NCBI GenBank assembly: GCA_045589295.1
Contig: JAZNOU010000012.1
Coordinates: forward strand, 160,001 to 224,000
DNA: 64,000 bases
Direction of reading: 5' to 3'
DNA from: Clostridia bacterium
GTDB lineage: Bacteria > Bacillota > Clostridia > RGIG6154
The position numbers were made by a program, and so were the translations under genes. Positions 10,269-30,134 of this stretch are shown here, in pieces. The notes under the pieces were generated by a model. The model was not told where the DNA came from, searched no databases, and worked only from the letters and a program-made list of their open reading frames with translations. The stretch's first letter is position 1; the number at the start of each line of letters is the position of its first letter.

Positions 10269-10765
10269 CTTATCAGACTCATTATTGCTAGAGTTATTAA
10301 AATTCCTGAAATACTACCAAAAGAGTCAATTAAAATGTCGGTAAACTGACAACTTCTTCCTGGCACAAATGTCTGGTGGAGTTCATCAGTTATTGCATAA
10401 AAAACACAAAATGTGAGAGAAATAATTACATTTTTTTGAAGGTAGTGGTTGCCTTTTTTAATAAAGCTTAGTGAATTGGATATAAAGATTGAAACTCCCA
10501 GTAACAAAAAAAGAAAAAAGTGTGCGGTTTTTCTTACATAATTATTTATCTTTTTGACAAGCTCATTTTTTTCTTTTTTAGAAATATTTTTGTTTTTGGT
10601 GACTGCAGTTACGATTTTTTTGGTTACTGATTTGCTTACTAAGTTTGATTTTGTGGCGGGTTGTGATGAAAAATAAAAGATAGACGCCATAATAATCAGT
10701 GTGAAAAAGTATGCAATTATTTTTTTGATAATCAGATGCGGATTTGTTCCTGAAATCATAGTCAC
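10250..10765 (-). CDS. VanZ-like family membrane protein
   Basis: IFYFSSQ, RKTAHF, YAITDELHQTFVPGR, DILIDSFG. Confidence 0.9.
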   Translation of the reverse strand: MTMISGTNPHLIIKKIIAYFFTLIIMASIFYFSSQPATKSNLVSKSVTKKIVTAVTKNKNISKKEKNELVKKINNYVRKTAHFFLFLLLGVSIFISNSLSFIKKGNHYLQKNVIISLTFCVFYAITDELHQTFVPGRSCQFTDILIDSFGSISGILITLAIMSLIRKKAVN

Positions 10766-11211
10766 TCCTCGTCAAACCTTGGTTCAACAAATAAGAACAT
10801 AAGCTGACCGATTTTTATAAGATCTCCCGTTTTTATGGCACAAGGCTCCAACCCTATGCGCTCGCCGTTTACGAATGTGCCGTTTGTTGTGTCATTATCA
10901 ACAATTGTCCACATGTCGTGCGATTTTAAAAACTGTGCATGCACAGTTGACATAAAAGGGTCTGAAATTATAATATCGTTTTTTCCACCTCTGCCTATTG
11001 TGAACTTGTGCTTGATATTATAACTTTCCTCAACTCTGAAAGGAACGGATTTTATTTTGTTTATCAGTTTGATGTATGGTGTGTCATCTAAAACGGTCCC
11101 CATACGTGAGTGCTTGATATCAAGGTAAATCAGTCTTATAATGCTGAACATAAAAAAGTAAATAGCTGTTACAAACAGGTATTTTAAAAGACCTGAAACA
11201 AGCTCAAACAT
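10762..11211 (-). CDS. Membrane-anchored FHA-domain protein (FhaB-like)
   Basis: N-terminal TM helix; FHA motifs IGRG, MSTVHA, TNGTFVNG. Confidence 0.9.
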   Translation of the reverse strand: MFELVSGLLKYLFVTAIYFFMFSIIRLIYLDIKHSRMGTVLDDTPYIKLINKIKSVPFRVEESYNIKHKFTIGRGGKNDIIISDPFMSTVHAQFLKSHDMWTIVDNDTTNGTFVNGERIGLEPCAIKTGDLIKIGQLMFLFVEPRFDEE

Positions 11212-11351
11212 AAAAAATCCCTCACTTTCTTTTTAATTAGTATAATATAAGTATTGAAAAAATGCAAATTTTTTATTATAATATATAATAGTGTAAATTT
11301 TAACTTTAATATTTACATAATTTGCCGGACATATTAAAGTCAGGAGGGAAT

Positions 11352-12803
11352 ATGGTGCGAAAAAATATTTCAAATCAGGAAGATCCTAATTTAAACAGCT
11401 CGGGGCAGACAACAGAGGTAGCGCAGGAAACAAAAGTAAAAAAAGCTCCGACAAAATTTCAAAAAGCAATTGAATATATCAAGGATAATTCTACAGTGGC
11501 AAAAAGCACAGTGATAGGGTTCTTTGTTTTTGCTGTCATATTGGCAATCGTTTCAAATATTCAGGTGGGTTATGCAGTTGTTTTTAATGATAAGACAATA
11601 GGTTATGTTGCGCACAAAGACACTGCACTTGAAAAAATTGATTTTATTTGCAAAGAAATTACCGACAATATAGCAGACACCGAAACAAATGTTACTGCTT
11701 CTTTGGTGCCTTCTGTTGCACCAGCCTTTAAATTTATAGCAGAGGACGAAATAGAACAGGCTATCAAAGAGGAGATTTCGTATTATGTTAATGCAGCGGC
11801 TGTTTATATAGATGGAGAGTTTGCGTTTGCAGCAAAAGATGCAACTGAGGCAGAAACGTTTATTAAAAAATATCAGGAAATGGTTTGCGGTGACGGAACT
11901 ATTATTTCTTCTCAAAGCGAAAACAAAGTAACATATAAAGATGAAAAGGTTATTCTTACAGAAGTGCTGGACGAGCAGGCGGCAATGTCAAGACTTGCGG
12001 GAACTGACTCAAAAGATGGACTTTATACTGTTGAAGAAGGAGATACACTGTGGAATATTGGTATTGATAACGATATTGCAACAGACTATCTTATGGTGCT
12101 TAACAACTTAGATAGTGAGGTTCTTCAGATAGGAACTGTTTTGAGGGTAAAATATCCAGAACCTATAATTGATGTTAAGGTAGTAAAAGATATTACCTAT
12201 ACCGAAATTCATCCCTACGAAACTGAGAAAAGATATGACAAAAATCTCAACGTCGGAACATATCGAACATATCAAAAGGGCTCTAACGGCGAAACAAGGG
12301 TAAGAGCAATTGTAACTTATGTTAACGGCAATGAAATTGAACGTGAAATTACAGAAAAAACTGTTTTAAGTGAGCCTGTTACAGAAATTCTTTTGGTAGG
12401 AACAAAGCCAAAGCCAAAAACTGCGGCGACAGGAAAGTTTGCAAGACCTATTTCGGGTGGATATGTGTCGTCCTCATTTGGCAACAGAAGCCGTGGATAT
12501 CATACAGGCGTTGACTGGGCAGTTTCATATGGAACACCTATTTATGCATCAGACGGCGGAACAGTTACAGCCGCCGGATGGGGTGGTGGTTACGGCAAAA
12601 TGGTTAAAATTAATCATGGTAATGGGTATGAAACTTTGTATGCCCATTGCTCAAAGCTTGTCGTATCAAGTGGAAAGAAAGTTGCAAAGGGGCAGCTTAT
12701 TGGTTATGTAGGTAGTACAGGAAACAGCACAGGACCTCATTTGCATTTTGAAATAAGAAGAAATGGTTCATACCTCAATCCTACTAAATATTGTGGTGAA
12801 TAA
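11352..12803 (+). CDS. LysM + G5 + M23 peptidoglycan DD-metalloendopeptidase
   Basis: YTVEEGDTLW (LysM), G5-like segment, HTGVD and STGPHLHFE (M23); ATG 11352 follows AGGAGG. Confidence 0.92.
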   Translation: MVRKNISNQEDPNLNSSGQTTEVAQETKVKKAPTKFQKAIEYIKDNSTVAKSTVIGFFVFAVILAIVSNIQVGYAVVFNDKTIGYVAHKDTALEKIDFICKEITDNIADTETNVTASLVPSVAPAFKFIAEDEIEQAIKEEISYYVNAAAVYIDGEFAFAAKDATEAETFIKKYQEMVCGDGTIISSQSENKVTYKDEKVILTEVLDEQAAMSRLAGTDSKDGLYTVEEGDTLWNIGIDNDIATDYLMVLNNLDSEVLQIGTVLRVKYPEPIIDVKVVKDITYTEIHPYETEKRYDKNLNVGTYRTYQKGSNGETRVRAIVTYVNGNEIEREITEKTVLSEPVTEILLVGTKPKPKTAATGKFARPISGGYVSSSFGNRSRGYHTGVDWAVSYGTPIYASDGGTVTAAGWGGGYGKMVKINHGNGYETLYAHCSKLVVSSGKKVAKGQLIGYVGSTGNSTGPHLHFEIRRNGSYLNPTKYCGE

Positions 12804-12809
12804 AACTTT

Positions 12810-12850
12810 AAGCAATCTCTCTTGTATGGGGGGATTGCTTGTAGGTTTTT
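12810..12850 (+). terminator. Intrinsic terminator after the M23 gene
   Basis: AAGCAATCTC...GGGATTGCTT stem followed by T-rich sequence. Confidence 0.6.
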
Positions 12851-12875: not shown

Positions 12876-12904
12876 TTGATTTTGGTAAGTAGGTGTGCTA
12901 TAAT
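12876..12904 (+). promoter_or_regulatory. sigmaA promoter of the PqqD/S-layer locus
   Basis: TTGATT-N17-TATAAT with extended TG. Confidence 0.7.
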
Positions 12905-12967
12905 TATCTTACGTAGGTATAACTGTGGATTTTTTTGTGTACCAATCAATTTTTGGAAGGTGAACAG

Positions 12968-13231
12968 ATGCGACTAAAAGATGGCTTTTTATTAAGAAAT
13001 GTTGCCGGTGAATATGTTGTTGTCCCAACAGGGAACAGCATGGTTGACTTTAAGGCTATGATATCTCTTAATGAAACAGGCGCGTTTTTATGGGAGCAGC
13101 TTTTAGCAGACAAATCAGAGCAGCAACTTTTAGATGCGCTTTTGAGTGAGTATGACGTTGATGAAAAAACCGCATCTGAAGATATTAAAGAGTTTGTAGA
13201 GTTGCTTAAAGAAAAGAACCTGTTGGTATGA
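12968..13231 (+). CDS. PqqD-family protein / stand-alone RiPP recognition element (RRE)
   Basis: 87 aa; FLLRNVAGEYVVVP...LNETGAFLWEQL...LLSEYDVDEKTASEDIKEFVELL is the PqqD winged-helix pattern; ATG follows GAAGGTG. Confidence 0.9.
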   Translation: MRLKDGFLLRNVAGEYVVVPTGNSMVDFKAMISLNETGAFLWEQLLADKSEQQLLDALLSEYDVDEKTASEDIKEFVELLKEKNLLV

Positions 13232-13680
13232 ATATGAAAAAAGTCTTAAGTACAAAAGAGATTATGCCTCTTGTGGGAGACATCTTAAAAACGGCGGAGC
13301 GAGTTAGGTTTACCGTTAAGGGAAACAGTATGTATCCGCTTTTAAGGTCGGACCGCGACGAGGTAGAGGTTATAAAGTGCGATAGTATAGGCAAGTATGA
13401 TATTGTTCTTTACAAAAGAAACAATGGTGACTATATTCTTCACAGGGTGCTCAAAGAAAATGACAACGCACTTTCAATAGCAGGCGATTTTGAACAGGAA
13501 CTTGAAAGCCCTGTGTATAAAGATCAGGTTATTGCAAAAGTTGTCAATATAATAAGAGACGGTAAAAAAGTTATCTCTTGTAACAACGGCATCTATAAAA
13601 CGTATTGTGTTTTGTGGGCGGCGGTATTTAAAAACAGACGAAGGATACTTAAAATACTTAAGAAACTGAGGAAATGGTGA
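13228..13680 (+). CDS. S24/S26-family serine peptidase, soluble
   Basis: VKGNSMYPLL (Ser), DIVLY, ILHRV (His), GD; no N-terminal TM helix; ATGA overlap with the RRE gene. Confidence 0.8.
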   Translation: MNMKKVLSTKEIMPLVGDILKTAERVRFTVKGNSMYPLLRSDRDEVEVIKCDSIGKYDIVLYKRNNGDYILHRVLKENDNALSIAGDFEQELESPVYKDQVIAKVVNIIRDGKKVISCNNGIYKTYCVLWAAVFKNRRRILKILKKLRKW

Positions 13681-15350
13681 AATTGAAAAATAAAGATATC
13701 GCTAAACAATGGTTTTTTAAGAATATCAGACAGGTTTTTGGCGGAGTTTTTGCTCTTACTTTTGTTTCTGTCCTGATTAATGTGTCAGGTGTCGGATTTG
13801 CGATTTCTTCAAAACGTGTTTTGGATGTAGCATCTAATTCAACTGAAGGGAACTTATTAACAGAAGCTTTAGTTTTGTTTTCTTTGGTTGTGATTCAGCT
13901 TATTTTGCAAATTATCCTCTCTAAGTGCTATGTTAAAACGCAGGCACAAACGAGAATTAAAATAAAAACCGACTTGTTTGAAAGCATAGTGAAAAAAGAT
14001 TTAACTGAGGTGAATTTTTATCACTCGGGTGAGTTGGTTAACAGGCTCACAAGCGACGTTAACGTTGTGTCAAACGCGGTGGTGGATATTTTACCAACTG
14101 CGATAGCACTTAGCATTGGGGTTTGTTTAAGCTTTGGGGTATTGTTCAGTTTGGACCCTGTTTATGCAGTTATTTATCTGATAGTTGCACCCCTTGCACT
14201 TTTAACTGCAAGATTTTTTAGAAAAAGGCTTAAAGTGTTACATAAAGAGTCGGTTTCAACCGACGGGATTGTTAAATCGTTTATGCAGGAATGTTTCAGA
14301 AATCTGCTCGTGGTCAAGGCTTTTGAAAAAGAAGATCACGTAACCGAAAAGTGTAATGCTTATCAACTTGCTAACTACAAGGTTTTGATAAAGAAAAACG
14401 ATATCAGCATTTTAGCGAACGTAATGTTCTTTTTGTCCATTACTGCAGGCTATTATTTAACTCTTATTTGGGGGGCATACAAGCTTTCGATAGGAATTTT
14501 AACAATCGGTGAAATTGTTGCAATGCTTGAACTTGTTTCACAAATTCAGTCCCCGCTAAAGTCATTATCATCACTTCTTCCGCAGTATTATTCGGCGGTA
14601 GCTTCATCTGAAAGAATTTTGGAGCTTGAAGATTTGCCTGATGAAAAACAACTAAATGCAAGCAGTGAAAAAGTTGATGACTTTTCAAAGCTTGTCATTG
14701 ACAATATGTCTTTTTCGTATGATGAAAGTTTAATTTTTGATAAAGCTTCCTGCGAAATTGAAAAAGGCGACATCGTCGGAATTTACGGCGAGTCGGGAAT
14801 TGGAAAAAGCACACTTATAAAACTTATTTTAGGAGTGCTTAAGCCCAATAAGGGCGAGATTTACATAGTTGACCCGAGCGGTCAAAAGATTTTGGTTGAT
14901 ACAGAAACTAAAAACCTGTTTTCTTATGTGCCTCAAGGTAACCTGATATTATCTGGCACAATAGCAGAAAACGTGGTTTTCGGTTCTGACAACATAGATA
15001 TAAAGCTGGTTGAACGTTGCATCAAAGTGTCGCAGCTTGATGAAATGGTCAGTCAGTTGCCACTAAAACTTGATACAGGTTTGGGTGAAGGCGGCCTAGG
15101 TCTTTCTGAAGGACAGGTACAGCGATTATCTATCGCAAGGGCATTGTATCGGAATTCTGAAATACTGTTGCTTGATGAAGCAACGTCGGCTCTTGACCGA
15201 GAAACCGAAATCAGGGTGTTGGAGGAAATGAAGAGTTTGAATAAGACTTGTCTTTTCATAACTCACCGCAAAGAAGCACTTTTAAGTTGCAGCAAGCTTT
15301 TAAGTGTGAAAAACGGAAAGATTTCCATCGACAGGCAGGAAATTTTATAA
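13674..15350 (+). CDS. ABC exporter (fused TMD-NBD), no C39 peptidase domain
   Basis: TM domain, Walker A GESGIGKS, signature LSEGQVQR, Walker B LLLDE. Confidence 0.92.
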   Translation: MVKLKNKDIAKQWFFKNIRQVFGGVFALTFVSVLINVSGVGFAISSKRVLDVASNSTEGNLLTEALVLFSLVVIQLILQIILSKCYVKTQAQTRIKIKTDLFESIVKKDLTEVNFYHSGELVNRLTSDVNVVSNAVVDILPTAIALSIGVCLSFGVLFSLDPVYAVIYLIVAPLALLTARFFRKRLKVLHKESVSTDGIVKSFMQECFRNLLVVKAFEKEDHVTEKCNAYQLANYKVLIKKNDISILANVMFFLSITAGYYLTLIWGAYKLSIGILTIGEIVAMLELVSQIQSPLKSLSSLLPQYYSAVASSERILELEDLPDEKQLNASSEKVDDFSKLVIDNMSFSYDESLIFDKASCEIEKGDIVGIYGESGIGKSTLIKLILGVLKPNKGEIYIVDPSGQKILVDTETKNLFSYVPQGNLILSGTIAENVVFGSDNIDIKLVERCIKVSQLDEMVSQLPLKLDTGLGEGGLGLSEGQVQRLSIARALYRNSEILLLDEATSALDRETEIRVLEEMKSLNKTCLFITHRKEALLSCSKLLSVKNGKISIDRQEIL

Positions 15351-15372
15351 AGTTTGTTTGGGAGGAATAAAG

Positions 15373-16329
15373 ATGAAATGTAAGAGAATTATCAAAGTAG
15401 TAAGTGCGCTTGCATTAACTGTAGCTTTGTTAGTATCTGCTAGTGTTGTTTCATTTGCTGCAACATATACAACACAGACAACATACATTAATGAAGATAC
15501 TATTGAAGTTATTTCAAGAGCTACAGGCTTAAACGATGGCGAAATGGCTACTTATGTTGCTTACAGAAACGGCGAGTTCTCAGAAACTAATGCAGTTTAC
15601 ATCGACCAGGCAACAGAGCAGGACAATGCAGTTGAATTTAGATATCAGGCAGATTCTGATGATGTAAAAGCAACAGTATTGTTCGGCGGTGAAAGCGCAC
15701 CGAATACATTGGAGCCGGATAAAGTTGGTCATAAAATTACAGTATATGTTAACGAAGTGGCTCAAGGCGACCAAGTTGCTGCTTATGCTGTAGCTGACTA
15801 TGACGGCGAATATCTCGCAAGAGAATTTTCGGTAAACATTGAAAACGGAAAAGCTATTAAAAAAGTTGAATTCGCAGCTGATGGAGCTGAAAAAACAACT
15901 GTAGAAGCTTGGTATGTTAAAAATGGCGCGTTGGTTGTATTAAGCCGTGTTATTGAATCAGATGGTTCATTGTACATTACAGCAGAGGATGCAACCATTT
16001 CTGTTAAACTTGGTGCTGTTACTGGTACTGAAAACACAATTACTGCATTTGCCAAAGCAGTTTGCACAGATGATGCAGACTACGGAATCTTAATTGCGGA
16101 CTCAGAAGTTGAAATCGAAGCTGCTGGTCGTATTGACTGGAAAGATGCTGAAGACTACACAACTCCGGTTTATTTCAATGCTTTAGGCAAAGGTAACAAT
16201 GGTGTATTTGCAGTAGAAGTAACTGATGAAGACTGCTTTGTTGCAGGTAAAAGCTTTAATGTAAAAGCTTATGCTGATTCTGGAGAGACAGAAGTGTATT
16301 CAATTGATACTGTAACTGTAAGATTATAA
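15373..16329 (+). CDS. Secreted acidic beta-rich hypothetical protein
   Basis: Sec signal MKCKRIIKVVSALALTVALLVSASVVSFAA; D/E/T/V-rich mature part; RBS GGAGGA. Confidence 0.75.
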   Translation: MKCKRIIKVVSALALTVALLVSASVVSFAATYTTQTTYINEDTIEVISRATGLNDGEMATYVAYRNGEFSETNAVYIDQATEQDNAVEFRYQADSDDVKATVLFGGESAPNTLEPDKVGHKITVYVNEVAQGDQVAAYAVADYDGEYLAREFSVNIENGKAIKKVEFAADGAEKTTVEAWYVKNGALVVLSRVIESDGSLYITAEDATISVKLGAVTGTENTITAFAKAVCTDDADYGILIADSEVEIEAAGRIDWKDAEDYTTPVYFNALGKGNNGVFAVEVTDEDCFVAGKSFNVKAYADSGETEVYSIDTVTVRL

Positions 16330-16376
16330 GAGCGACTGTATCATTTAACGATACAAATTCAGGAGGAGAATTTACT

Positions 16377-16538
16377 ATGAAAAATTATCAAAAACCTGTT
16401 TTAGAGGTTGTTGAATTAGCAGTTGCTGAAAATATCGCTGCATTAGTGCCGAAAACTATCTATAAAAGATCAGTTGGCAAGAAGATGGCTCAGGACACCA
16501 GAATAATGCTTGTAGAAGATTTAAGTAATCTTAGCTAA
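16377..16538 (+). CDS. 53-aa putative RiPP-like precursor peptide, missing from the ORF track: MKNYQKPVLEVVELAVAENIAALVPKTIYKRSVGKKMAQDTRIMLVEDLSNLS
   Basis: Strong RBS AGGAGG ahead of ATG 16377; TAA at 16536-16538; YQKPVL matches the YxxPxL RRE-binding motif; RRE gene in the same locus. Confidence 0.8.
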   Translation: MKNYQKPVLEVVELAVAENIAALVPKTIYKRSVGKKMAQDTRIMLVEDLSNLS

Positions 16539-16587
16539 TTTTAGCACTGCAAATTAAATAAAAATTTGAGAGGATGTTTACTTTAAT

Positions 16588-17463
16588 ATGCAATATACTG
16601 TCGCAGGTTTTAATATTGATGTTGTCAGTGAACATCCTTCTTATCTTTTTATGAGACTCAAAGACTATGAAAGCACTTTTTCGGGGGAAGCAGACTTTAC
16701 AGTCAGGTGTAAAGAAGAAAAAAATATCGCTCTCCCCGATGATATTGTGCTTATAGGTCAAAGAGTCGGAAGATGGATATGGTTTGAAAAAAAAGATGGT
16801 ACGCTCGGTGCGTACATAAAATATGACGATGTCGAAAACATTGCGGCATTGGCATTGTGGGATAAAGCTTTTAAAAATATTGAATTATCTGTTTATGATA
16901 TTGAGCCATACGGCAATTTGCCAATAGCTCAAAGAATTTTTTATTTACTGGGAGATGTTATTGCATACTCGGTATTAAACTGCGGTGCAGGAGTTTTCCA
17001 TTCTTCTGCGATAAGTTATAAAGGAAACGGGATTTTATTTTCCGCACCATCGGGAACAGGAAAATCCACACATACATCTTTATGGAAAGATGTTTTTGGT
17101 GATAATGTTGTTATATTTAATGACGATACACCAATACTTAAGATAGAAAATGACGTTTGTTTTGCCTACGGCTCACCTTGGAGCGGCAAAACTGCGATTA
17201 ATGAAAATATAAAGGTTCCGCTTAAGGCGATTGTATGCCTTGACAGAGCGCAGACCAATTCAATAAAAAGACTTACGGGGATTAGTGCTTTTTACAGAAT
17301 TTTCAATGAAATGAGAAAGCCTCCGGTTGAGAGTCTTATGGACAAGAGTCTTACGGTTATGGATAGTATTTTGCAGAAAGTTCCGGTTTACGAGCTTTTT
17401 TGCAATAAAAATAAAGATGCAGTAATGACAGTTTTTGACGCTGTCGGTTTTGACAAATTATAA
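16588..17463 (+). CDS. HPr kinase-like P-loop protein (lasso-kinase/ScmC-like)
   Basis: FHSSAI, Walker A APSGTGKST, FNDD acidic pair, GSPWSG; no DRTGG N-terminal domain of true HprK. Confidence 0.8.
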   Translation: MQYTVAGFNIDVVSEHPSYLFMRLKDYESTFSGEADFTVRCKEEKNIALPDDIVLIGQRVGRWIWFEKKDGTLGAYIKYDDVENIAALALWDKAFKNIELSVYDIEPYGNLPIAQRIFYLLGDVIAYSVLNCGAGVFHSSAISYKGNGILFSAPSGTGKSTHTSLWKDVFGDNVVIFNDDTPILKIENDVCFAYGSPWSGKTAINENIKVPLKAIVCLDRAQTNSIKRLTGISAFYRIFNEMRKPPVESLMDKSLTVMDSILQKVPVYELFCNKNKDAVMTVFDAVGFDKL

Positions 17464-17477
17464 GAGAGGTAAAAAGG

Positions 17478-19088
17478 ATGAATAAAAAAATATTTTTTGG
17501 TACACTTTTGTGTATGGTTTTATGTTTAAGCATTGCGACATGCGCATTTGCCGCAACATTTTCTGATTTATCAAAAAGCCACTGGGCGTACGATAATATT
17601 GTCGAATTAAGTTCACAGGGGGTTATAAACGGATACTCTGACGGTACATTTCGCCCCGAAGCATATGTTACGAGAGCTGAATTTGTTAAGCTTATAGGTA
17701 CAATCGATACAATCAAAAATGGTGACTTTGACGACCTACCTAAAACTCACTGGGCATATGAATACGTTATGAAATCAGGGGTTGATGTTGACAGAAAGAA
17801 CTTTCGCCCTGATGAAAATATCACAAGAGCAGAAGTTTTAGATATATTGTGGAACAGATATGGAACTGAAACAGATGCAAAAGTTCCCGGAATTATAGAA
17901 AATCAGCACAAAAATGTTCCGGCTGTTACCTGGGGATATTCTTACGGACTTATGATAGGCGATGACGGAATAAATTTAAGACTTAGTGATGATTTGTCAA
18001 GAGCAGAAGCGGTTACACTTATTTTGCGCTCCAGAAAGATTGATACATCAAAGCAAAAGTTGCTTGCAGACAATGTAAACAGCAAGATTTTGGAAAATAT
18101 TTTTAATGATACAATGCTTTTTGATAAACCTTACAGTGAAAATGAAACAGTTACAGTTGGCGAAATTTCACACGCAGCTTTAAGACTTGCATATCAAACA
18201 AAGCAAATTCCATATAACAAGGATTTGTATATCGGCGATCCACAATTTGATGGTGATTATGCACTTGATATTGCTCACATGGCAAAACAAGTATTTGGTG
18301 AAGCTTCAAACAACAAAGAGTTTGCAGAAGGCAAGGCAAATCAACAGCAGGTTTTGGCAGCACTTATGTATGGTTATATGTTTAAAGCAAACGACTCGCC
18401 TGTAATCGGCAGAATGGATGATTACTACAAAGATGCAGTTGTTGCAAAAGGTCTTACAATGCAAAATATGTTACTTACATACACTAACAGACGCGGCATT
18501 TTTGCAAGCGCTGACGGACTTTTGCATAATGACAAAGCTGTAACACATAAAGAAATTGCATCAATTCTTTTGCAACTTGATAACTTTACAGGTTCACAAA
18601 TAAGCTATTCAAACGGCAAAGAATCGGATGAAAAATTAAGCACAGATGCTTATATTTACGAAAATGCAGATGATGGATTTGGAATTTTATTAAAAGGCAT
18701 TCCAAACGTAGTTTACGAGACACCAATGAAAGCTCCTGCTAAAGAGTTTACAGTTTTTGCAAGAGATTTCTTTGAAATATTTACTACTCTTTCAGATGGC
18801 ATTAAGGCAAAAGCCAAAAGCGAGGGCGCTGAAATTGTTTTAAGAGTTTATCCAACACTTATTGCAAATGCAGGCAATGAAGTTATTATGAGAACAAAGA
18901 TATATGTAGCTTCAAATCCAAAAGGCTTAAATCTTGGTGAAATTATCGGTAAGTGCGATATGAATACAGATATTAAAGCCTTGGAAGGTAAAACGTATTT
19001 TGTTGATATTTCAACCAATCATCCATTGGATGACATGTACATCAATCCTGAAAATGTAAGCTTAAAACAGCTTATATGGAATGATTAA
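17478..19088 (+). CDS. S-layer homology (SLH) domain surface protein
   Basis: Signal peptide (AFA); FSDLSKSHWAY...GYSDGTFRPEAYVTRAEF plus two more SLH units (ITRAE, LSRAE). Confidence 0.88.
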   Translation: MNKKIFFGTLLCMVLCLSIATCAFAATFSDLSKSHWAYDNIVELSSQGVINGYSDGTFRPEAYVTRAEFVKLIGTIDTIKNGDFDDLPKTHWAYEYVMKSGVDVDRKNFRPDENITRAEVLDILWNRYGTETDAKVPGIIENQHKNVPAVTWGYSYGLMIGDDGINLRLSDDLSRAEAVTLILRSRKIDTSKQKLLADNVNSKILENIFNDTMLFDKPYSENETVTVGEISHAALRLAYQTKQIPYNKDLYIGDPQFDGDYALDIAHMAKQVFGEASNNKEFAEGKANQQQVLAALMYGYMFKANDSPVIGRMDDYYKDAVVAKGLTMQNMLLTYTNRRGIFASADGLLHNDKAVTHKEIASILLQLDNFTGSQISYSNGKESDEKLSTDAYIYENADDGFGILLKGIPNVVYETPMKAPAKEFTVFARDFFEIFTTLSDGIKAKAKSEGAEIVLRVYPTLIANAGNEVIMRTKIYVASNPKGLNLGEIIGKCDMNTDIKALEGKTYFVDISTNHPLDDMYINPENVSLKQLIWND

Positions 19089-19118
19089 TCTGGTTTAATT
19101 TACATGGAGGAAAAATAA

Positions 19119-19811
19119 ATGGAAGAAAGAGAAATTGATATCTGGGGACTAATACAGTCAATAATTAAGAGATGGTGGATTGTTGCTATTATCACTGTTA
19201 TAGTCGGAACAACAGGTTTTACATATTCAAAATTTGCAATCACTCCTTTGTATGCGGCAAAAGGAACACTTTATATTACCGTAGACAATACTGCCTCCTT
19301 GCAAGGTGGAACAAGTCTTGATTACAACTCAATTTTGGCGGCACAGGAGCTTACAAAAACATATTCTTTAATACTTTCAAGTAATACATTCTACAGAATT
19401 GTTGCTGCAGAAAGCGGACTTGACTACAGCTATAAAGAAATTTCAAGAATGGTTACAATGGGCAACGAAAATGACAGTGAAATTATGTCGATTACAGCAA
19501 AATGTGCAAATAGAGAACACGCAGCTATTATTGTTGAAACTATACTTAACAATGCACAGGCAGAAATTTCAAGAGTGGTTATTGGCGGAAGTGTAAGAAT
19601 TATTGACCATCCTGAACTTCCTAACGGACACTCATATCCTAACGTAACAAAGAACACATTCTTATGCTTGGCGCTTGGTGTTATCTTAGGTTGTGCTCTT
19701 GCAATTTTCATTGAATGGCTTGATGATACAATCAAGAGTGATGAGGATGTGCTGAAGTTTGGCATCCCGATATTAGCAGTTATCCCGCTTTTAGAAACAA
19801 AAAGCGAGTAA
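19119..19811 (+). CDS. Wzz/CpsC (CapA/YveK-like) polysaccharide co-polymerase
   Basis: EIDIWGL..KRWW, TM1, PLYAA, Pro-rich SYPN, TM2, LDDTIKSDEDV..GIPILAVIP. Confidence 0.88.
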   Translation: MEEREIDIWGLIQSIIKRWWIVAIITVIVGTTGFTYSKFAITPLYAAKGTLYITVDNTASLQGGTSLDYNSILAAQELTKTYSLILSSNTFYRIVAAESGLDYSYKEISRMVTMGNENDSEIMSITAKCANREHAAIIVETILNNAQAEISRVVIGGSVRIIDHPELPNGHSYPNVTKNTFLCLALGVILGCALAIFIEWLDDTIKSDEDVLKFGIPILAVIPLLETKSE

Positions 19812-19851
19812 AAAAAGACAGTAAAATTTTTCAGAAAGGGTGAGAGAAGAT

Positions 19852-22800
19852 ATGAGAAAGCGTGTAAAATCGCTTATTGGCATGATTATTGCAATGACTA
19901 TGATCTTGCCGACGGCTTTGCCGGTGACAACTCCTGTTTCGGCACAAAATTCCTACGGATTTAATGATTTTCCTACCGGATGGTCAGCACCTGCAATGTC
20001 ACATGCAGTTGAAAACGGATTGATATACGGAAAATCCGAAGACCGTATATGTCCTACAGATAATTTAACTAGAGCGGAAATGGCTACAATCATTAACCGT
20101 GCATTCGGTGCTACGGTGGAAAAGGATATTTCGGCATTTTCAGATGTAGCTCAGTCAGCTTGGTATTACAATGAAATAAAAAAGGCATACAATATGCAAA
20201 CCCTTTATGGTGATGCAGGCGGCACTATGCGTCCCGATGCCTTTATTATAAGAGAAGAAGCCATAGCGATTGTTGCAAGAGCTATGGTTTTAAGTGGTTA
20301 TTCGGCTTCTAATCTTGATAAGTTTAATGATAAAGACCAAATTGCAGATTGGGCAGTAGATCCGCTGGCTTCAATGGTAGCAAACGGCTACGTTAACGGC
20401 GATGAAAAGTCTAATATGAATCCGAAGGCATTCATTACCAGAGAAGAATTTGCTCAGCTTTTACATAATATTGTTAAGCATTATTATGATGCTGAAGATG
20501 GCGTAACAACATTCAACGGGAATGTTATGATTAATGAACCGACCACTTCATTGAGTGATTTGGTTGTTAATGGCGATCTTATTTTGGGTGATGGTGTTGG
20601 AACAAGCAACATTGTTCTAAAAAATGTTAAAGTAACAGGTCGTATCCTTATCAGAGGCGCAACCCATATTTCGTTTAAAAACAGCAACTTTGGTGGCGGC
20701 GTTACAGTTAAAAATGTTAATGATGTGGTACATTTTGATCATTTTAGTGATGAAGTGCATTTTAATGATATGCAAGATCACACAGAGGTCACATTTAAGA
20801 AGAAAACTACCGGCGGTGGCGGTGGTGGAACTCCTCCGGCACCTACAACTGCTAGTTATAAAGTGGAACACTATCAGGAAGCTTTGGATGGAAGTTTTGC
20901 AGTTTTTGAAACAGAAACCCTTTCAGGCAGTATTGGTGCAAGTGTTACAGCAGTAGCTAAAACCTATACAGGTTTTAGCGAAGATACTGTAAATCCATCA
21001 AGAGTTGCAACAGGCACTGTTGTATCTGATGGTTCTTTGACTCTTAAGCTTTTTTACACAAGAAACAGTTATACAGTAACATTTGATGCTCGCGGCGGTG
21101 CTATTTCAGGCACACCGAAAACTGTTTATAAATTCGGTGAAACATTAGAACTCCCTGTACCTACAAAAGGAACAGACACATTTGGCGGGTGGTGGACAGC
21201 GCTAAATGGAACAGGAACAAAAATTGAAAATACAAGCGTATTGGGAACAGATATTACATCTGCTGCCATTACTGTTTATGCGCATTGGATACCTGCAGCT
21301 CCGACTCCCACAGCTACGACGTTTACAGTAAAACATTTGTTTGAAAAACTTGACGGAACTTATGAAACTAAAGCAGAACGCGGAGATGAACTTAACGTTG
21401 CCGGTGATATAACGGTTTCAATCGTTCCTGAAAATTACAGAAATCCGATTGCGGGATTTAATTATTTTGATTATAGCTTTGACGGAACAGACAATGCAGG
21501 CATGCCAAAAGCAGATGGAAGCACTGTTCTTAATATCCGTTATAATAGAAAGAGCTACGACATCGTATATAACTATGGTGAAGCAGGCGGAAGCAACACA
21601 GTTTCATTTAGATATGGTGAAAGTGTAGATCTTTCAATTCCGACAGTTACACCACCTGTAGGTAAGTATTTTGCAGGTTGGTATGATGCACTTGTTGGCG
21701 GCACACAGGTAACATTCCTTGAAACACCTGTTGGCGGAACAACAATTTATGCACGTTGGGCAGAAGATGTTGGAGTTTATACTGTTGAATTCTATCAGCA
21801 GAATTTGGATGGAACTTACACCCAAGTAACTGCGGACACTTTATCAGGACTTACTGGTGTAGTAGGAACAGATGTAAGTGTGGATAAAAATTCGACCACA
21901 ATCAAAGATAAGTATATAGGTTTTGAAGTTAATGAAACAGAAAGTACACTCACACAAAGACTTGCTAAAACAGGCACAGTACTTAAAGTTTATTATGACA
22001 GAAAGATTTATACAATCGATTACGACTTTGATGGCGGTTATGCAGATGGAACATATACTGATACATTTATGTATGGCCAAACCGTTGCGCTTGCCAAAGG
22101 TAAAAATAGCAATGGCAAGGTTTTAGGCGGTTGGTTTACCGATTTAGATGGTAATGGCACACAGGTAACAGATACTGCAAATATTGATGCTATCTTAGGC
22201 GCGCTCACAGGCAATACAATCACACTTTATGCTTATTGGGTAGAAGAAATAGGCGAATATTCTGTTGAATTCTATCAGGAAACTTTAGATGGTGCTGATT
22301 ATACTCTTGTTGCAGCTGACACTATTGTCGGTCTTACAGGAACAGTCGGCGAGAAAGTAGCTATTGATGCAACAATAGATGAAGTTAAGAATAAATATTC
22401 AGGCTTTACAGTAAACGTTGCAAAGAGTGAACTTTCAAAAACACTTGCTAAAGAGGGCACAGTTCTTAAAGTTTACTACGACAGAAATATTTATACCTTG
22501 TATTACAATTATAGCGATGCTGATACTGTGGGAATTGGAAGTGCGACCTTTAAACATGGTCAGAATATCACATTCCCTGATGAATCAACATTCAATAAAG
22601 AATCATTTAGCTTTGCAGGCTGGTACACAACCCAGGACTTTAAAGATGATGAAGTTGTAGATACAGGCAATACAATCGAACAGATTATAGACATTGCAAA
22701 TGGTGAAACAGAAACTACCATATATGCTAAATGGGCAAAATTCTTCACAGTAACATTCAGAGAGGGTGCAAAAATAGGAACGTACACAGTTGATCCTGCT

Positions 22801-25800
22801 GTTGAAAACACAGTTCCGTATTCTGCATTCCCTTACGACAAACTTGTTGAACGTTATAAGACAGGTTACTTTGAAGATGAATCTGTATCTTCTGTATACG
22901 CAGGTAATGAGTATAAACACACATTTGAAGGACAGTGGTACTACACAGATGAAAACGGCAACGATGTCGTATTTACAGACGAAACAATTGTAGACCGCGA
23001 TCTTACAGTAAGATATAAATTCAGATATGTGAGACTGGAACTTTTTGTTGAGAAATTAGGTCATAACCTTGTACTTGAGGTGCCTTTTGAAGAAAGTACA
23101 AGAATTATCGACACAATTAAAGATGAATTGTTTGTAAATCAGGAAAAAATACTTTTGGTTGCAGATGAAGTTGATGCAAGAAGCAAGTTTATGGCGTTGA
23201 ACCTTAAGTTGGTTAACTTCCTTGACAGTAAGGGAATTGAAATAGTTGAACCTGGTATGATTTTCGCCGAAGATGGCGAAATCTTAAAGCAACATATCAG
23301 ATTTAATGCATTTGCATATCTTGATGAAGCAAGTGTTAAGACTGTTGTTGTAAACGCAATCAGAACAACATTCAAAAATGATCCTTTAAGAATGCGTGGC
23401 GTTATCGATGAAATGATGACAGAACAGGATGAAGACGTTGTTAACCTTATGGATACAATGCTTGTATCTATGCTTTCAGGTTCAGATGCTGCAAGAATCA
23501 AGGGTATTATTGCAGATGCGGTGGAAGATGCGGTTGCAAATGATACAACCGGTGAGTTCAAAAACAAAATTAAAGACATCATAACAACACAGCTTGATGC
23601 AGGTAATACAACAGTTGAAACAAGCATTAAAAAGGCAATTAAAGATTACTTTATGAACAGCGCAAATGATGCTAAAATCAGAGAAATCGTTTCAGACCTT
23701 ATTGATGATGCTTATAAAACTGATGATGAAACCGATCCGGTAAGGAATTTCGTGAAGAGTTACATAAAGACATATCTTAACGAAAACCCAACAGTTTTAG
23801 ATGATATGATCAGAGAAATGGGCGAAAATTTAGATCCTAATGATCCTAACGATGCGCACATTATTGATCTTATTCATGAAGTTTTAGACGAAAATGTAAT
23901 ATATCTTGAAAAACTTGTTGATGATGCTATCAAGAACCTTAAAAACACAATAGGCGAACCAATACACAGCTTTATCGTTGATGCCATCACAACAGAGCTT
24001 TCAACTAATGCTGCTGAGCTTGATATTTTGATTGATGAAATCTCAAATGCAAACGTAACTGATATTAAGTCGGTGCTTGCAACAGTTATGGAAGATAACG
24101 ATACATTTGAAATTATTGTTAAAGATGCAATTGCCGATGAAGCGGTATTTAATAAGGTTATCAAAGCTGCTCTTGACAACGCAAGTGTATTTGATGCAAT
24201 CGTAAGCGAACTTTGCAGCGGCGATACGAGCTTCTATAATATGCTTGTAGACATTGCACTTTCGTCAGATTCACTTAAGGGCGAGGTTAAAAATGCAGTT
24301 GTTAATAATGATGATGCACTTATAAGCGTACTTAATGAAGTGGCATCTGATGCTTCACTTAAAGCTGAAATGGTTGAAGAAATTTTAGTTGCTTCTGATG
24401 CTAAGCTTAAAGATCAGCTTACAAGCCCGCTTTCTATAACATCGGATTATTATGCAGACGTTAAAGCTCAGGCACTCAGTCAGGCTGAAACTGAAATAAT
24501 AGGCATAATCGAAACAGGTATCAATGAAGATGAACACCCAGATTACTGGCCGATTGCTTTTGAAAAGGCTATGGAAATAGCAGAAGCAAGAGTTAGACAG
24601 GATCTTATTGCTGGCAGTGTTGATCCTAACGGTTCACTTTGGGATACAATGTATGCAGAGGCAATGGCTCAAGCAGCAATTGATGTCAAAGCAGAGCTTA
24701 ACGGAGGTATTACTGATGCTTCAGAATACTACGCAGCTGCTGTAAATGGTGCTAAAGAGCAGGCAGAAAAAGAAATTACAGACTTACTTTCAACAGGTAT
24801 TACTGAGGGTAGCAAGTACTGGGATGTTGCATATAGTACTGCAAAAGGAATTCTTAGAACCGAAATTGACACATCATTCGATTCAAAGATTGTAGAAATC
24901 AAGACAGATGCTAATCTTAAAGCACAGGTGGTAGCTTGGGCACAGACAGCGATTAATAACACTAATATAGAAAGTGCTATTAAGAACTATGCTAAAGGCT
25001 TGGCTACAAGCACAGACTCTGCGGATGTTAGCCTTAGAACATCAATTATTGACACTGTAATCAATACAGCAGATAGCTTAGAACCAGGTAAAAAAGAGAC
25101 ATTGGTTAGTGATATTATCACAGAGCTTTTGAAACCTGCAAATGCAACAGTTAAAGAGACTGTTGAAAACAAGGCTATTGAAGTATTAAACAGAGCTGAA
25201 AACAATGCACTTAAAACTACGCTTATCGATAGTGTGCTTGAAGATATCTTTGCTGACAACACACTTAAAGGCGATTTGATTGCAAGACTTAAGACTAAGG
25301 TTAAGGACCCTGCACAGGAAGCATTTAAGTTAACTGTTATTAGCGAAGCTATCAATGCAGTTGTTAATGATAGCTCAGTTAATGCAAGGGCAGTTATAAT
25401 AATAAATGACCTGATTGAAACAGATACTGCATTTAAGGCAGACATTATAGAGCACATCGTCGACTATATCTTAGAAGATGCTACTGTTAGAGCTGAAGCT
25501 ATGGAAAAGGTTGTCGAAATGATTGAAGATCCGGAAGATGACAGCCATAAGCAGGAAGCAATCGACTTTGCGTTTGACACCCTTAAGGGCGACACAACGA
25601 AACGTGCAGAAATTGTGGATAAGTTCTTAACAAACATCTTAGGTAATAATGACAAGAGAGAAGATATGGCAACAGAAGTTATCGACATTATGTTCTCTAA
25701 CGATACCTTAAGAAATAGGATTTTAGATCTTGGGTTCGAACAGATGTTCGCAGGTGAAGATACAATTGCAGAAATTGTTTCACTTGCACTCGACGAACTC

Positions 25801-27066
25801 ATTAGTGACGATACCGTAAGACGTGATATGATTATTGCAGTAATCAGCACTGAAAGCGGAAGAAGAAAGATTTTAGACATTCTCTTTGATGAACTTGAAA
25901 GGGATCCTGAGTTCATTGACGAAATAGTTGACATCGCAATGAACGGCAAGTATGGCGATTTGGTTGATATATTTGTATCCGACCTTATTTACAACGGAAA
26001 GATTCAGATTAATCCAGACAACAGACAAATCGCAGAAGAAATCGTTCTTCCAATGTTAGACGACATTTCTCTTGATACTGTTTTAGGCAAATTGCCCGCA
26101 AAAGTTACAGATGTTTTACCAACATCTGTAATCGAAAAGGCGTTTAACAAGTTTAAGTCAAAAGCAAGAGAACTTTTGGTTGAAGGTATAAATGAAGCTA
26201 AAGAAGGCAACTGGAAAGACATTTCAGTTATGGTGGACAACGAGCTTGATATAATTAATGAAGTTTTAGTTCCGCTTTATAATAAAGTATTCCCGAAAGT
26301 TGTTGACAAAGCTGAGGACTTCTACTACTACAACGAAAATGTTTACTTAAAAGCAATAGTTGACATGATTGACCCTGAGTTCTTGCTTGATAACACAAAA
26401 CCGGCATCAATTGGTGGAACAGGATACAGATTAAGAACAACAGAAGAATATTATGAAATTATCAGAAATATCTCTGTTTTAGTTGATGATGCAGCAAACT
26501 GGTATATGGAAAACATTTCTGATGACCAGATTAACGGTGCTATTGACAAAGTTGCAGGAAAAGTTAATACTTTACTTGCAAAGGTTAATGGACTTGTGGG
26601 CGGAAGAATACCAATGTCTAAGATTGACAAAGTGGTTGAATACACCAAGAAGGCTCTTGATAAGAGAGAAAGCGTTTATAATATTACAACAAATGGTGTA
26701 TTTGAAAAGGTTGACAAGGTTTATAACAAGCTTATTGAAATTGTTAAAAACAAAACCGGTGTTGATATTACTAAGTCTACTACGATAGAAGTTACTTTTG
26801 ACGGAAGTGAAATCGACGTAAACGGTAAGGATGTCAACATTGACAATCGTAAGATAAGCATCAGTGTTAAAGGTTACAAATTTGAACTTGATTCAGAATC
26901 AATCACAGCACTTAACAAAACTGTTAATATTGACAGATTTGTTCAAAAAGCTGCCGATTTATTCGGAACAAGAAGTGTAACATTTAAAATTATAAATGAT
27001 GCTCCGTACAGCTACGGTGCTTATGTGGGCAATAACTACATAAAGTTAGCTGCTGAGTACAAATAA
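19852..27066 (+). CDS. Giant (~2404 aa) SLH-anchored surface protein with InlB-B/Listeria-Bacteroides repeats and a long alpha-helical repeat region
   Basis: Signal peptide, three SLH units (LTRAE, IIREE, ITREE), GGGGG linker, repeated F.GW(Y/W/F)...YA.W modules, >1200-aa acidic amphipathic C-terminal part; ATG 19852 (GTG 19840 is an alternative). Confidence 0.85.
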   Translation: MRKRVKSLIGMIIAMTMILPTALPVTTPVSAQNSYGFNDFPTGWSAPAMSHAVENGLIYGKSEDRICPTDNLTRAEMATIINRAFGATVEKDISAFSDVAQSAWYYNEIKKAYNMQTLYGDAGGTMRPDAFIIREEAIAIVARAMVLSGYSASNLDKFNDKDQIADWAVDPLASMVANGYVNGDEKSNMNPKAFITREEFAQLLHNIVKHYYDAEDGVTTFNGNVMINEPTTSLSDLVVNGDLILGDGVGTSNIVLKNVKVTGRILIRGATHISFKNSNFGGGVTVKNVNDVVHFDHFSDEVHFNDMQDHTEVTFKKKTTGGGGGGTPPAPTTASYKVEHYQEALDGSFAVFETETLSGSIGASVTAVAKTYTGFSEDTVNPSRVATGTVVSDGSLTLKLFYTRNSYTVTFDARGGAISGTPKTVYKFGETLELPVPTKGTDTFGGWWTALNGTGTKIENTSVLGTDITSAAITVYAHWIPAAPTPTATTFTVKHLFEKLDGTYETKAERGDELNVAGDITVSIVPENYRNPIAGFNYFDYSFDGTDNAGMPKADGSTVLNIRYNRKSYDIVYNYGEAGGSNTVSFRYGESVDLSIPTVTPPVGKYFAGWYDALVGGTQVTFLETPVGGTTIYARWAEDVGVYTVEFYQQNLDGTYTQVTADTLSGLTGVVGTDVSVDKNSTTIKDKYIGFEVNETESTLTQRLAKTGTVLKVYYDRKIYTIDYDFDGGYADGTYTDTFMYGQTVALAKGKNSNGKVLGGWFTDLDGNGTQVTDTANIDAILGALTGNTITLYAYWVEEIGEYSVEFYQETLDGADYTLVAADTIVGLTGTVGEKVAIDATIDEVKNKYSGFTVNVAKSELSKTLAKEGTVLKVYYDRNIYTLYYNYSDADTVGIGSATFKHGQNITFPDESTFNKESFSFAGWYTTQDFKDDEVVDTGNTIEQIIDIANGETETTIYAKWAKFFTVTFREGAKIGTYTVDPAVENTVPYSAFPYDKLVERYKTGYFEDESVSSVYAGNEYKHTFEGQWYYTDENGNDVVFTDETIVDRDLTVRYKFRYVRLELFVEKLGHNLVLEVPFEESTRIIDTIKDELFVNQEKILLVADEVDARSKFMALNLKLVNFLDSKGIEIVEPGMIFAEDGEILKQHIRFNAFAYLDEASVKTVVVNAIRTTFKNDPLRMRGVIDEMMTEQDEDVVNLMDTMLVSMLSGSDAARIKGIIADAVEDAVANDTTGEFKNKIKDIITTQLDAGNTTVETSIKKAIKDYFMNSANDAKIREIVSDLIDDAYKTDDETDPVRNFVKSYIKTYLNENPTVLDDMIREMGENLDPNDPNDAHIIDLIHEVLDENVIYLEKLVDDAIKNLKNTIGEPIHSFIVDAITTELSTNAAELDILIDEISNANVTDIKSVLATVMEDNDTFEIIVKDAIADEAVFNKVIKAALDNASVFDAIVSELCSGDTSFYNMLVDIALSSDSLKGEVKNAVVNNDDALISVLNEVASDASLKAEMVEEILVASDAKLKDQLTSPLSITSDYYADVKAQALSQAETEIIGIIETGINEDEHPDYWPIAFEKAMEIAEARVRQDLIAGSVDPNGSLWDTMYAEAMAQAAIDVKAELNGGITDASEYYAAAVNGAKEQAEKEITDLLSTGITEGSKYWDVAYSTAKGILRTEIDTSFDSKIVEIKTDANLKAQVVAWAQTAINNTNIESAIKNYAKGLATSTDSADVSLRTSIIDTVINTADSLEPGKKETLVSDIITELLKPANATVKETVENKAIEVLNRAENNALKTTLIDSVLEDIFADNTLKGDLIARLKTKVKDPAQEAFKLTVISEAINAVVNDSSVNARAVIIINDLIETDTAFKADIIEHIVDYILEDATVRAEAMEKVVEMIEDPEDDSHKQEAIDFAFDTLKGDTTKRAEIVDKFLTNILGNNDKREDMATEVIDIMFSNDTLRNRILDLGFEQMFAGEDTIAEIVSLALDELISDDTVRRDMIIAVISTESGRRKILDILFDELERDPEFIDEIVDIAMNGKYGDLVDIFVSDLIYNGKIQINPDNRQIAEEIVLPMLDDISLDTVLGKLPAKVTDVLPTSVIEKAFNKFKSKARELLVEGINEAKEGNWKDISVMVDNELDIINEVLVPLYNKVFPKVVDKAEDFYYYNENVYLKAIVDMIDPEFLLDNTKPASIGGTGYRLRTTEEYYEIIRNISVLVDDAANWYMENISDDQINGAIDKVAGKVNTLLAKVNGLVGGRIPMSKIDKVVEYTKKALDKRESVYNITTNGVFEKVDKVYNKLIEIVKNKTGVDITKSTTIEVTFDGSEIDVNGKDVNIDNRKISISVKGYKFELDSESITALNKTVNIDRFVQKAADLFGTRSVTFKIINDAPYSYGAYVGNNYIKLAAEYK
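20857..22734 (+). repeat. Four tandem ~155-160-aa two-domain modules (YxVE(H/F)YQ..LDG..YxR + InlB-B repeat)
   Basis: Modules begin YKVEHYQE, FTVKHLFE, YTVEFYQQ and YSVEFYQE; units 3 and 4 share DNA identity at ~480-bp spacing (CTGTTGAATTCTATCAG; CTTAAAGTTTA). Confidence 0.8.
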
Positions 27067-30121: not shown

Positions 30122-30134
30122 GGGGGGCTGAAAA

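Follow-up and report, generated by a model that had tools for sequence, protein, structure and literature searches.

The stretch of DNA analysed here (the window) comprises 64,000 nucleotides of a Clostridia bacterium (assembly GCA_045589295.1, contig JAZNOU010000012.1, forward-strand positions 160,001 to 224,000) whose genome is assembled as 1.54 Mb in 22 contigs and is 97% complete. It holds a 53-residue open reading frame (ORF) that we consider as a candidate precursor of a RiPP-like product (RiPP, a ribosomally synthesized peptide that is modified post-translationally). The ORF lies in a run of genes, called the cassette below, that opens with a stand-alone RiPP recognition element (RRE) of the PqqD family and also encodes a peptidase, an ATP-binding cassette (ABC) exporter, a P-loop protein with a kinase fold, and surface proteins, one of them with S-layer homology (SLH) domains. 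The features are as follows.

12968..13231, + strand: PqqD-family protein, stand-alone RRE (PF05402, E 4.9e-19)
13228..13680, + strand: S24/S26-like Ser/His peptidase of 150 aa, overlapping the PqqD stop codon
13674..15350, + strand: ABC exporter of 558 aa (PF00664 at residues 26-295, PF00005 at 356-505)
15358..16329, + strand: secreted all-beta protein of 323 aa with a signal peptide (likely start ATG 15373)
16361..16366, + strand: ribosome-binding site AGGAGG, with a 10-nt spacer to ATG 16377; comparable sites lie upstream of homologues
16377..16538, + strand: precursor-like peptide ORF of 53 aa that includes no Cys and ends in Ser
16377..16439, + strand: leader, residues 1-21, MKNYQKPVLEVVELAVAENIA, from position statistics on 147 distinct peptides
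16440..16538, + strand: predicted core, residues 22-53 (ALVPKTIYKRS...DLSNLS), and stop; PKTIYK(K/R) is kept in the family and the tail is variable
16588..17463, + strand: HprK/ScmC-like P-loop protein of 291 aa with a kinase fold
17478..19088, + strand: SLH-domain surface protein of 536 aa (PF00395)
19119..19811, + strand: Wzz/CapA-type polysaccharide chain-length determinant (PF02706, TIGR01006)

The original prediction for this DNA had noted the AGGAGG site, the Cys-free 53-aa frame and a kinase-like gene directly 3' of it, and both the coordinates and the translation proved to be exact; the gene that follows the peptide begins at 16588 and encodes the 291-aa P-loop protein. All 17 same-family genomes searched, which represent six genera, contain a homologue of the peptide. 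Each is encoded by a frame of 53-63 aa with a Shine-Dalgarno-like site, and its position between identical neighbours is kept. The prediction had depended on conservation of the ORF and its leader in syntenic loci, and such conservation is what we observed throughout the family. Outside the family, weak peptide matches occurred in 5 of 43 genomes, and the one in G052 alone is a true syntenic homologue. Within-genus comparisons of codons 1-31 gave 0.10-0.25 synonymous (pS) and 0-0.014 nonsynonymous (pN) differences per site, and the median pN/pS for these codons over 153 pairs was 0.35, which indicates purifying selection. The homologues, ribosome-binding sites, conserved synteny and signature of purifying selection together establish the 53-residue ORF as a genuine gene that is conserved.

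A protein identical to the 53-aa product is present in a large protein collection that has NCBI among its sources. Of 220 candidates for a profile built from 19 homologues, 112 proteins matched it at E ≤ 1e-3. These are 52-67 aa long and lack Pfam domains, and only three are named, each as a 'hypothetical protein' from a metagenome-assembled genome (MAG) of Clostridia. When 1.84 billion representatives were searched exhaustively with a profile, 77 clusters at 50% identity were returned, all of 37-69 aa, and the match begins at residue 1 in all except three, in which it begins at residues 9-11. No Pfam or NCBIfam model (NCBIfam release of June 2026) matched the peptide. Across the class, 66 of 399 genomes gave a match to the peptide profile. 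Twenty sequencing runs contain the locus, all of them DNA metagenomes of animal gut or faeces.

Position counts were made for 147 distinct peptides anchored on YxxP. Tyr at position 4 and Pro at position 7 are present in 147/147, and position 9 is I/L/V in 133/147, in agreement with the YxxPxL-type leader that the original prediction had recognized. Further conserved positions are K/R at 6 (141/147), E at 13 (136/147), L at 14 (138/147), E/D at 18 (146/147), N/S/A at 19 (131/147), I/L/V at 20 (146/147) and A/S/T at 21 (145/147). Beyond position 22, conservation drops away. Small residues at -1 and -3 are the rule for the S24/S26-type peptidase class, and because positions 21 and 19 would supply them, we predict that the leader is cut after A21.

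The remainder of the peptide is variable and has local motifs. PKT(I/V)YK(K/R) directly follows the leader in the family of the window, a TIYKK string lies near the C-terminus in another family, and many other members have an hTTYNL-like strand with a tail rich in Ser/Thr after it. Ser or Thr is present among the last six residues in 128 of the 147 peptides. A basic core with an acidic tail ending in Ser, as originally described, is a trait of the peptide's own genus only: the C-terminal Ser is found in 41/41 peptides of the own-genus type, where the residues before it vary, and in only 14/106 others, and conserved core motifs are found elsewhere, so that the description stands for the genus and not in general. 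At three loci (L072:7294-7687, L073:7293-7686 and L074:7446-7789), two tandem precursor-like genes share one leader type and differ in their cores; these pairs have the kinase-like gene on one side and the ABC or PqqD gene on the other.

Gene order was compared over 16 loci with long flanks. The kinase-like gene is present in 16/16 and PqqD in 15/16, the remaining locus being cut by a contig end. The S24/S26-like peptidase is found at 13 of the 16, the ABC gene at 10, the immunoglobulin (Ig)-like secreted protein at 11 and Wzz at 13; the SLH protein follows the kinase-like gene at 13 and is also seen in other families. PqqD, near which the original prediction had suggested looking for the leader, belongs to the same conserved cassette. 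In other families, the kinase-like gene adjoins the peptide at 10 of 13 short loci. Of 15 further loci, 11 have PqqD, 10 the peptidase and 8 the kinase-like gene. In five genomes where the peptide is unlinked, both a kinase-like and a PqqD gene lie elsewhere (5/5). The cassette lies nearly always beside S-layer, SLH or polysaccharide genes.

The kinase-like profile matched 151 of 400 genomes of the class at E ≤ 1e-10, including 15/15, 14/14 and 12/12 genomes of three families. When the tables were compared by hand, 63 of the 66 peptide-positive genomes were also kinase-positive, versus 151/400 overall; these counts are descriptive, not a test, as related genomes are non-independent. The three exceptions are probably false, since their peptide matches lie inside long frames or in frames bearing stops. 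The cassette is thus widespread in gut Clostridia and vertically inherited within families. Some families (f7, f12 and f46, for example) have relatives of about 235-250 aa that match only the C-terminal P-loop half of the kinase-like profile (about positions 108-284), and in these genomes the present profile recognizes no peptide. In family f56 (L078:3306-7319, L070:7834-9821) the peptide gene lies 3' of secreted proteins with, as judged by eye, N-terminal domains of the copper-amine-oxidase type, cohesin-like regions and dockerin-like repeats, and the kinase-like gene is on another contig. The idea that the peptide always lies 3' of a secreted protein fails at the f10 loci L081 and L084.

Among 25 sequences of the kinase-like protein, H138, S155, T157-G158-K159-S160-T161 and N178-D179-D180 are invariant, as are G195, P197 and G200 of a GxPWSG motif, and G156 is nearly so. 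The AlphaFold2 (AF2) model has a predicted local distance difference test score (pLDDT) of 94, and its top Foldseek matches are HprK/P (1knx, 1kkl, 1jb1, 3tqf) and phosphoenolpyruvate carboxykinase (PEPCK), at E 7e-6 to 1.2e-4 with modest template modelling (TM) scores. The protein thus has both the HprK/PEPCK fold and a Walker A loop. Searched as a single sequence against those of the PDB, it gave nothing at E ≤ 1, and the family profile gave P-loop and PEPCK fragments only. The ScmC model TIGR04249, the only NCBIfam or Pfam match to the window's protein, scored E 7.4e-5 and 22.2 bits against a cutoff of 125. Over the 25 proteins, NCBIfam matches were to ScmC in 23, HprK_rel_A in 13 and HprK_rel_B in 12.

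The peptidase has eight invariant residues in 14 sequences (G32, S34, M35, P37, H72, R73, G86 and D87), which make up GxSMxP, HR and GD motifs. PF00717 matched 14/14 members at E ≤ 0.1, with a best value of 1.3e-8, and the window's protein matched TIGR02228, the archaeal-type signal peptidase I, at E 1.8e-5 and 24.7 bits (cutoff 51.85). A profile search of the PDB aligned it with signal peptidase I (4me8, E 0.086), the His falling on the catalytic Lys. Its sequence has no N-terminal hydrophobic segment, and for this reason the enzyme is probably cytoplasmic or membrane-peripheral. We consider it a candidate leader peptidase; leader peptidases of the S24/S26 type are not known to occur in other RiPP classes.

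The PqqD ORF is open from TTG 12935, and ATG 12968 is the likely start. Binding of the peptide by this RRE, which the original prediction had proposed to model, was weakly supported in silico: the predicted complex scored 0.36, the best of three controls 0.00, the runs agreed in at least 85% of contacts and the partner pLDDT was at least 47. The mark used is reached by 58/80 solved complexes and 2/110 mismatched pairs, and scores of 0.60 or below hold only 7/80 solved complexes together with both passing mismatches. As solved structures of RRE-leader complexes exist, likeness alone may account for the pass. The ABC exporter has no N-terminal C39 peptidase domain. The secreted 323-aa protein is modelled as tandem Ig/fibronectin type III (Fn3)-like sandwiches (AF2 pLDDT 77), and its Foldseek matches, at low TM scores, are to adhesins, S-layer proteins and Ig-repeat proteins. 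It belongs to no Pfam or NCBIfam family, and the ESM Atlas gave only unnamed clusters with scores below 0.9; the modelled fold appears to be a generic tandem Ig/Fn3 and functionally uninformative.

A variant of the cassette carries a radical S-adenosylmethionine (SAM) enzyme. In genome G110 it spans L082:3070-11223, in the order CapD-like, PqqD, radical SAM/SPASM, two peptides, kinase-like, peptidase, ABC and DegT-like, with the CapD-like and DegT-like polysaccharide genes at its two ends, and both peptides have the same leader with Cys-bearing cores. The best peptide-maturase matches of this radical SAM protein are ScmE/F, GeoRSP rSAM and StsB, all below cutoff. A homologue of the maturase is present in 3 of 45 fetched loci (L074, L077 and L082), and these are the loci with Cys-core peptides, one or two each. 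We found no homologue of the L082 maturase in the 64-kb window, where the other ORFs of 12935-19811 are all otherwise assigned. Core composition thus tracks the enzyme set, as expected for precursor peptides, and the radical SAM variant also marks PqqD, the peptidase, the kinase-like protein and the ABC protein as a common platform.

We favour, with moderate confidence, the reading that the ORF encodes the precursor of a widespread RiPP-like maturation and export cassette, in which the leader would be bound and cut, the core phosphorylated and the product exported. The gene is conserved and under selection, its product joins a conserved leader to a variable core, its linkage to the neighbouring genes is kept, and lasso and radical SAM enzymes are missing. 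What is generic to RiPP precursors is found here: a short gene, a conserved leader and a variable core beside an RRE and genes for processing and export. The original proposal, a substrate of a different RiPP-like class, agrees with all of the comparative data.

We infer the binding, cut site, phosphorylation, export and place of action, which could run as follows. The stand-alone PqqD would bind the conserved 21-residue leader (YxKPxh...EL...ExIA), and the translationally coupled S24/S26-like Ser/His peptidase would remove it after the small residue 21, taking the part that B2 plays beside B1 in lasso systems. The HprK/ScmC-like kinase may then phosphorylate a Ser or Thr of the core. The review PMC8498205 (see also PMC7533575 and PMC4289311) describes HPr-kinase homologues that phosphorylate the C-terminal Ser of linear lasso precursors, and by analogy the likely site in the genus would be the invariant C-terminal Ser. 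The ABC transporter would export the product, which might act at the cell surface with the Ig-like secreted protein, the SLH protein and Wzz.

Several observations weigh against this reading. None of the sequencing runs listed for the locus is an RNA run. The kinase-like protein matches families only below their cutoffs, and Pfam Hpr_kinase_C matched no member at E ≤ 0.1, so that it may perhaps be no protein kinase at all. For the window's peptidase, PF00717 reached only E 0.035 and 14.2 bits (gathering score 23.3), and the complex prediction for PqqD with the peptide gives weak support. The C-terminal Ser is unconserved outside the genus; a C-terminal phospho-Ser is therefore not a common feature of the family. 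At two loci of the same family (L027 and L034) the locus consists of PqqD, the peptide, the kinase-like gene and Wzz only, and four distant loci (L070, L071, L081 and L084) have no cassette enzyme nearby. Finally, vertical conservation across whole families is unusual for an antibiotic-type RiPP. This strictly vertical inheritance, together with the constant SLH, Wzz, CapD and DegT neighbours, points to a role related to the envelope rather than to an antibiotic.

A more specific version of the favoured reading, which we offer as speculative and on balance doubtful, is that the product is a 'housekeeping' linear peptide, trimmed of its leader, phosphorylated and exported for cell-surface building, and not an antibiotic. 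Its beta-strand motif (PKTIYK/hTTYNL) might insert into the Ig-like secreted protein; alternatively, the peptide might be a phosphorylated primer or regulator of a Wzz-dependent polymer that is anchored by the neighbouring SLH proteins. In that event a RiPP-type pathway with an S24/S26-type leader peptidase would have been recruited to envelope assembly.

In a serious rival reading, the peptide would be a small protein that stays inside the cell, uncleaved, and serves as a phospho-acceptor or adaptor, an HPr-like switch by which the kinase-like protein and PqqD would control the adjacent surface-polysaccharide and S-layer genes. The two minimal loci, with no peptidase or exporter nearby, are what such a non-processed regulator would lead one to expect. 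The vertical conservation resembles that of a housekeeping function, linkage to Wzz and SLH genes is constant, and PKT(I/V)YK(K/R) is conserved within the supposed core. However, the peptidase is coupled to PqqD at 13 of the 16 loci and the ABC exporter is present at 10, and G012, one of the two minimal genomes, has on a different contig (L037) a second copy with an ABC gene beside it. Also typical of precursors rather than regulators are the conserved N-terminus joined to a hypervariable rest, the tandem copies, and the Cys cores that occur wherever there is a radical SAM enzyme; we judge the regulator unlikely.

Far less probable is that the window holds a decaying radical SAM cluster, of the SCM/GeoRSP or ranthipeptide kind, that has lost its maturase and left a functionless peptide. 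The loci L074, L077 and L082, where a radical SAM/SPASM enzyme accompanies the same leader and the genes for PqqD, the peptidase, the kinase-like protein and the ABC protein, would suit such an origin, but 42 of the 45 fetched loci have no maturase homologue, which makes the version without it the majority one. The peptide is moreover present throughout the family (17/17), the genes are all intact and the peptide shows purifying selection. The locus is also no sactipeptide or ranthipeptide locus, as originally stated, because no radical SAM homologue was found in the window and the peptide has no Cys.

That the peptide is a lasso precursor served by a B2 protease and a cyclase from other loci is already contradicted and deserves almost no credence. 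The stand-alone PqqD-type RRE (B1) and the YxxPxL leader are lasso features, the best NCBIfam matches of PqqD are to lasso B1-type models, all below cutoff, and PMC7533575 and PMC8498205 place HPr-kinase homologues in lasso clusters of Firmicutes. However, the transglutaminase-like B2 protease family PF13471 has no match in the 97%-complete genome, and a search for an Asn-synthetase-like macrolactam cyclase of lasso size (about 600 aa, PF00733) gave only two partial Asn_synthase matches there, both on contigs other than that of the window: one covers positions 23-97 of the profile in a 345-aa frame, the other positions 15-48 in a 334-aa frame. Cutting after residue 21 or 22 would put I or A at -2 in place of the penultimate leader Thr, and I-Y-K or Y-K-R at core positions 7-9, with no Asp or Glu. 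Because PF13471, a full cyclase, Thr(-2) and the ring-forming acid are all lacking, the locus is not a lasso system, and the original exclusion of this class on the peptide's own features is borne out. That the ORF is open merely by chance, as part of an intergenic spacer, has only its shortness and lack of a database family in its favour; this is contradicted by conservation, ribosome-binding sites, synteny and purifying selection and has practically no probability.

The surroundings of the cassette in the window include the following features.

10762-11211, - strand: FHA-domain protein, divergent, beside a VanZ-like gene
11322-12803: M23/LysM/G5 peptidase
12809..12841, + strand: terminator-like hairpin after the M23 gene, a 14-pair stem and then a T run
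12876..12904, + strand: promoter-like site 5' of PqqD (TTGATT-17-TATAAT, upstream TG), a consensus match only
19840-27066: giant SLH-domain protein of 2408 aa with internal repeats

Promoter-like sites are no more frequent in the region as a whole than in its shuffles. The synteny of the M23, FHA and VanZ genes is confined to the genus, and because of this and of the hairpin and promoter-like site 5' of PqqD, we place the beginning of the cassette at PqqD. The FHA-domain gene was considered as a phospho-Thr reader and dropped, being syntenic within the genus only. For the 2408-aa SLH protein, tblastn gives several overlapping self-similar stretches in relatives. Farther out, the cassette is flanked by cell-division and cell-wall genes (window 1-8675, with an FtsQ-type gene at 7902-8675) and by SecD/SecF (28820-31022). 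A second PqqD gene of the genome (110 aa, L069, G000:C13:15812-18982) is unrelated to the cassette; it lies directly 3' of an OPT-type oligopeptide transporter-like gene, with no peptide or kinase-like gene near.

As a rule, RRE-dependent maturation comes to light by way of an enzyme that defines the class, for example a cyclase, a radical SAM enzyme or a YcaO protein. Here the same recognition logic, which is known, is joined to an enzyme set that is undescribed and has no described product: a Ser/His S24/S26-like peptidase and a ScmC-like protein with a kinase fold. The system is common, with the kinase-like gene in 151/400 and a recognizable peptide in 66/399 genomes of the class. If the favoured reading is true, it would be a new RiPP-like class in Clostridia of the animal gut, would give a first function to the ScmC/HprK-related proteins of several 'cassettes' that exist only in databases, and would tie ribosomal peptides to envelope biogenesis.

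We found no description of a cassette of PqqD, S24-like peptidase and HprK-like protein in the literature; the papers that we found are lasso-related or unrelated. The main texts of two RRE papers (RRE-Finder, PMC7470986, and a paper of 2025, PMC12710340) have no mention of kinase, S24, signal peptidase or HPr, and their supplements may list such clusters. A search for SynChlorMet, GeoRSP and HprK-related kinases gave nothing relevant.

Among known systems, the paeninodin-type lasso clusters of Firmicutes consist of a precursor, B1 (PqqD), B2, the cyclase C, the ABC exporter D and the HPr-kinase homologue K. The cassette has in common with them the stand-alone PqqD RRE, the YxxPxL-type leader, the gene for an HprK-fold P-loop protein beside the precursor, and the ABC exporter; in the peptide's own genus, the invariant C-terminal Ser would also correspond to the residue that is phosphorylated there on the linear precursor, as PMC8498205 describes. 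It differs in having neither B2 nor the cyclase, with the S24/S26-like Ser/His peptidase in the place of B2, and its peptides have neither Thr(-2) nor a ring-forming acid and do not conserve the C-terminal Ser outside the genus.

The SCM and GeoRSP systems, defined by NCBIfam/TIGRFAMs models (ScmC, ScmD and ScmE/F; GeoRSP PqqD and rSAM), likewise combine a PqqD-family protein with an HprK-related one. ScmC is the best model for 23 of the 25 kinase-like proteins, and the L082 maturase matches ScmE/F and GeoRSP rSAM. However, the cassette scores far below cutoff and is therefore not a member, and in the window it has no radical SAM enzyme and instead has genes for a peptidase, an exporter and surface proteins. 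Sactipeptide and ranthipeptide systems use an RRE with a radical SAM/SPASM enzyme on Cys cores, and the three related loci show the same type of leader in such a setting, whereas the window's peptide has no Cys and its locus no radical SAM enzyme.

The peptidase itself resembles the ER-type signal peptidases (SipW, Sec11), with which it shares the Ser of GxSMxP, a His for the bacterial Lys and the GD box. SipW serves TasA. Among NCBIfam models, the archaeal-type signal peptidase I fits the cassette's peptidase best, and the small residues at -1 and -3 fit this class. The enzyme of the cassette differs in its length of 150 aa, in having no N-terminal membrane anchor, in its coupling to a cytoplasmic RRE and in its scores below cutoff. 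Given the missing anchor and this coupling, it would cut a leader in the cytoplasm rather than a signal peptide outside.

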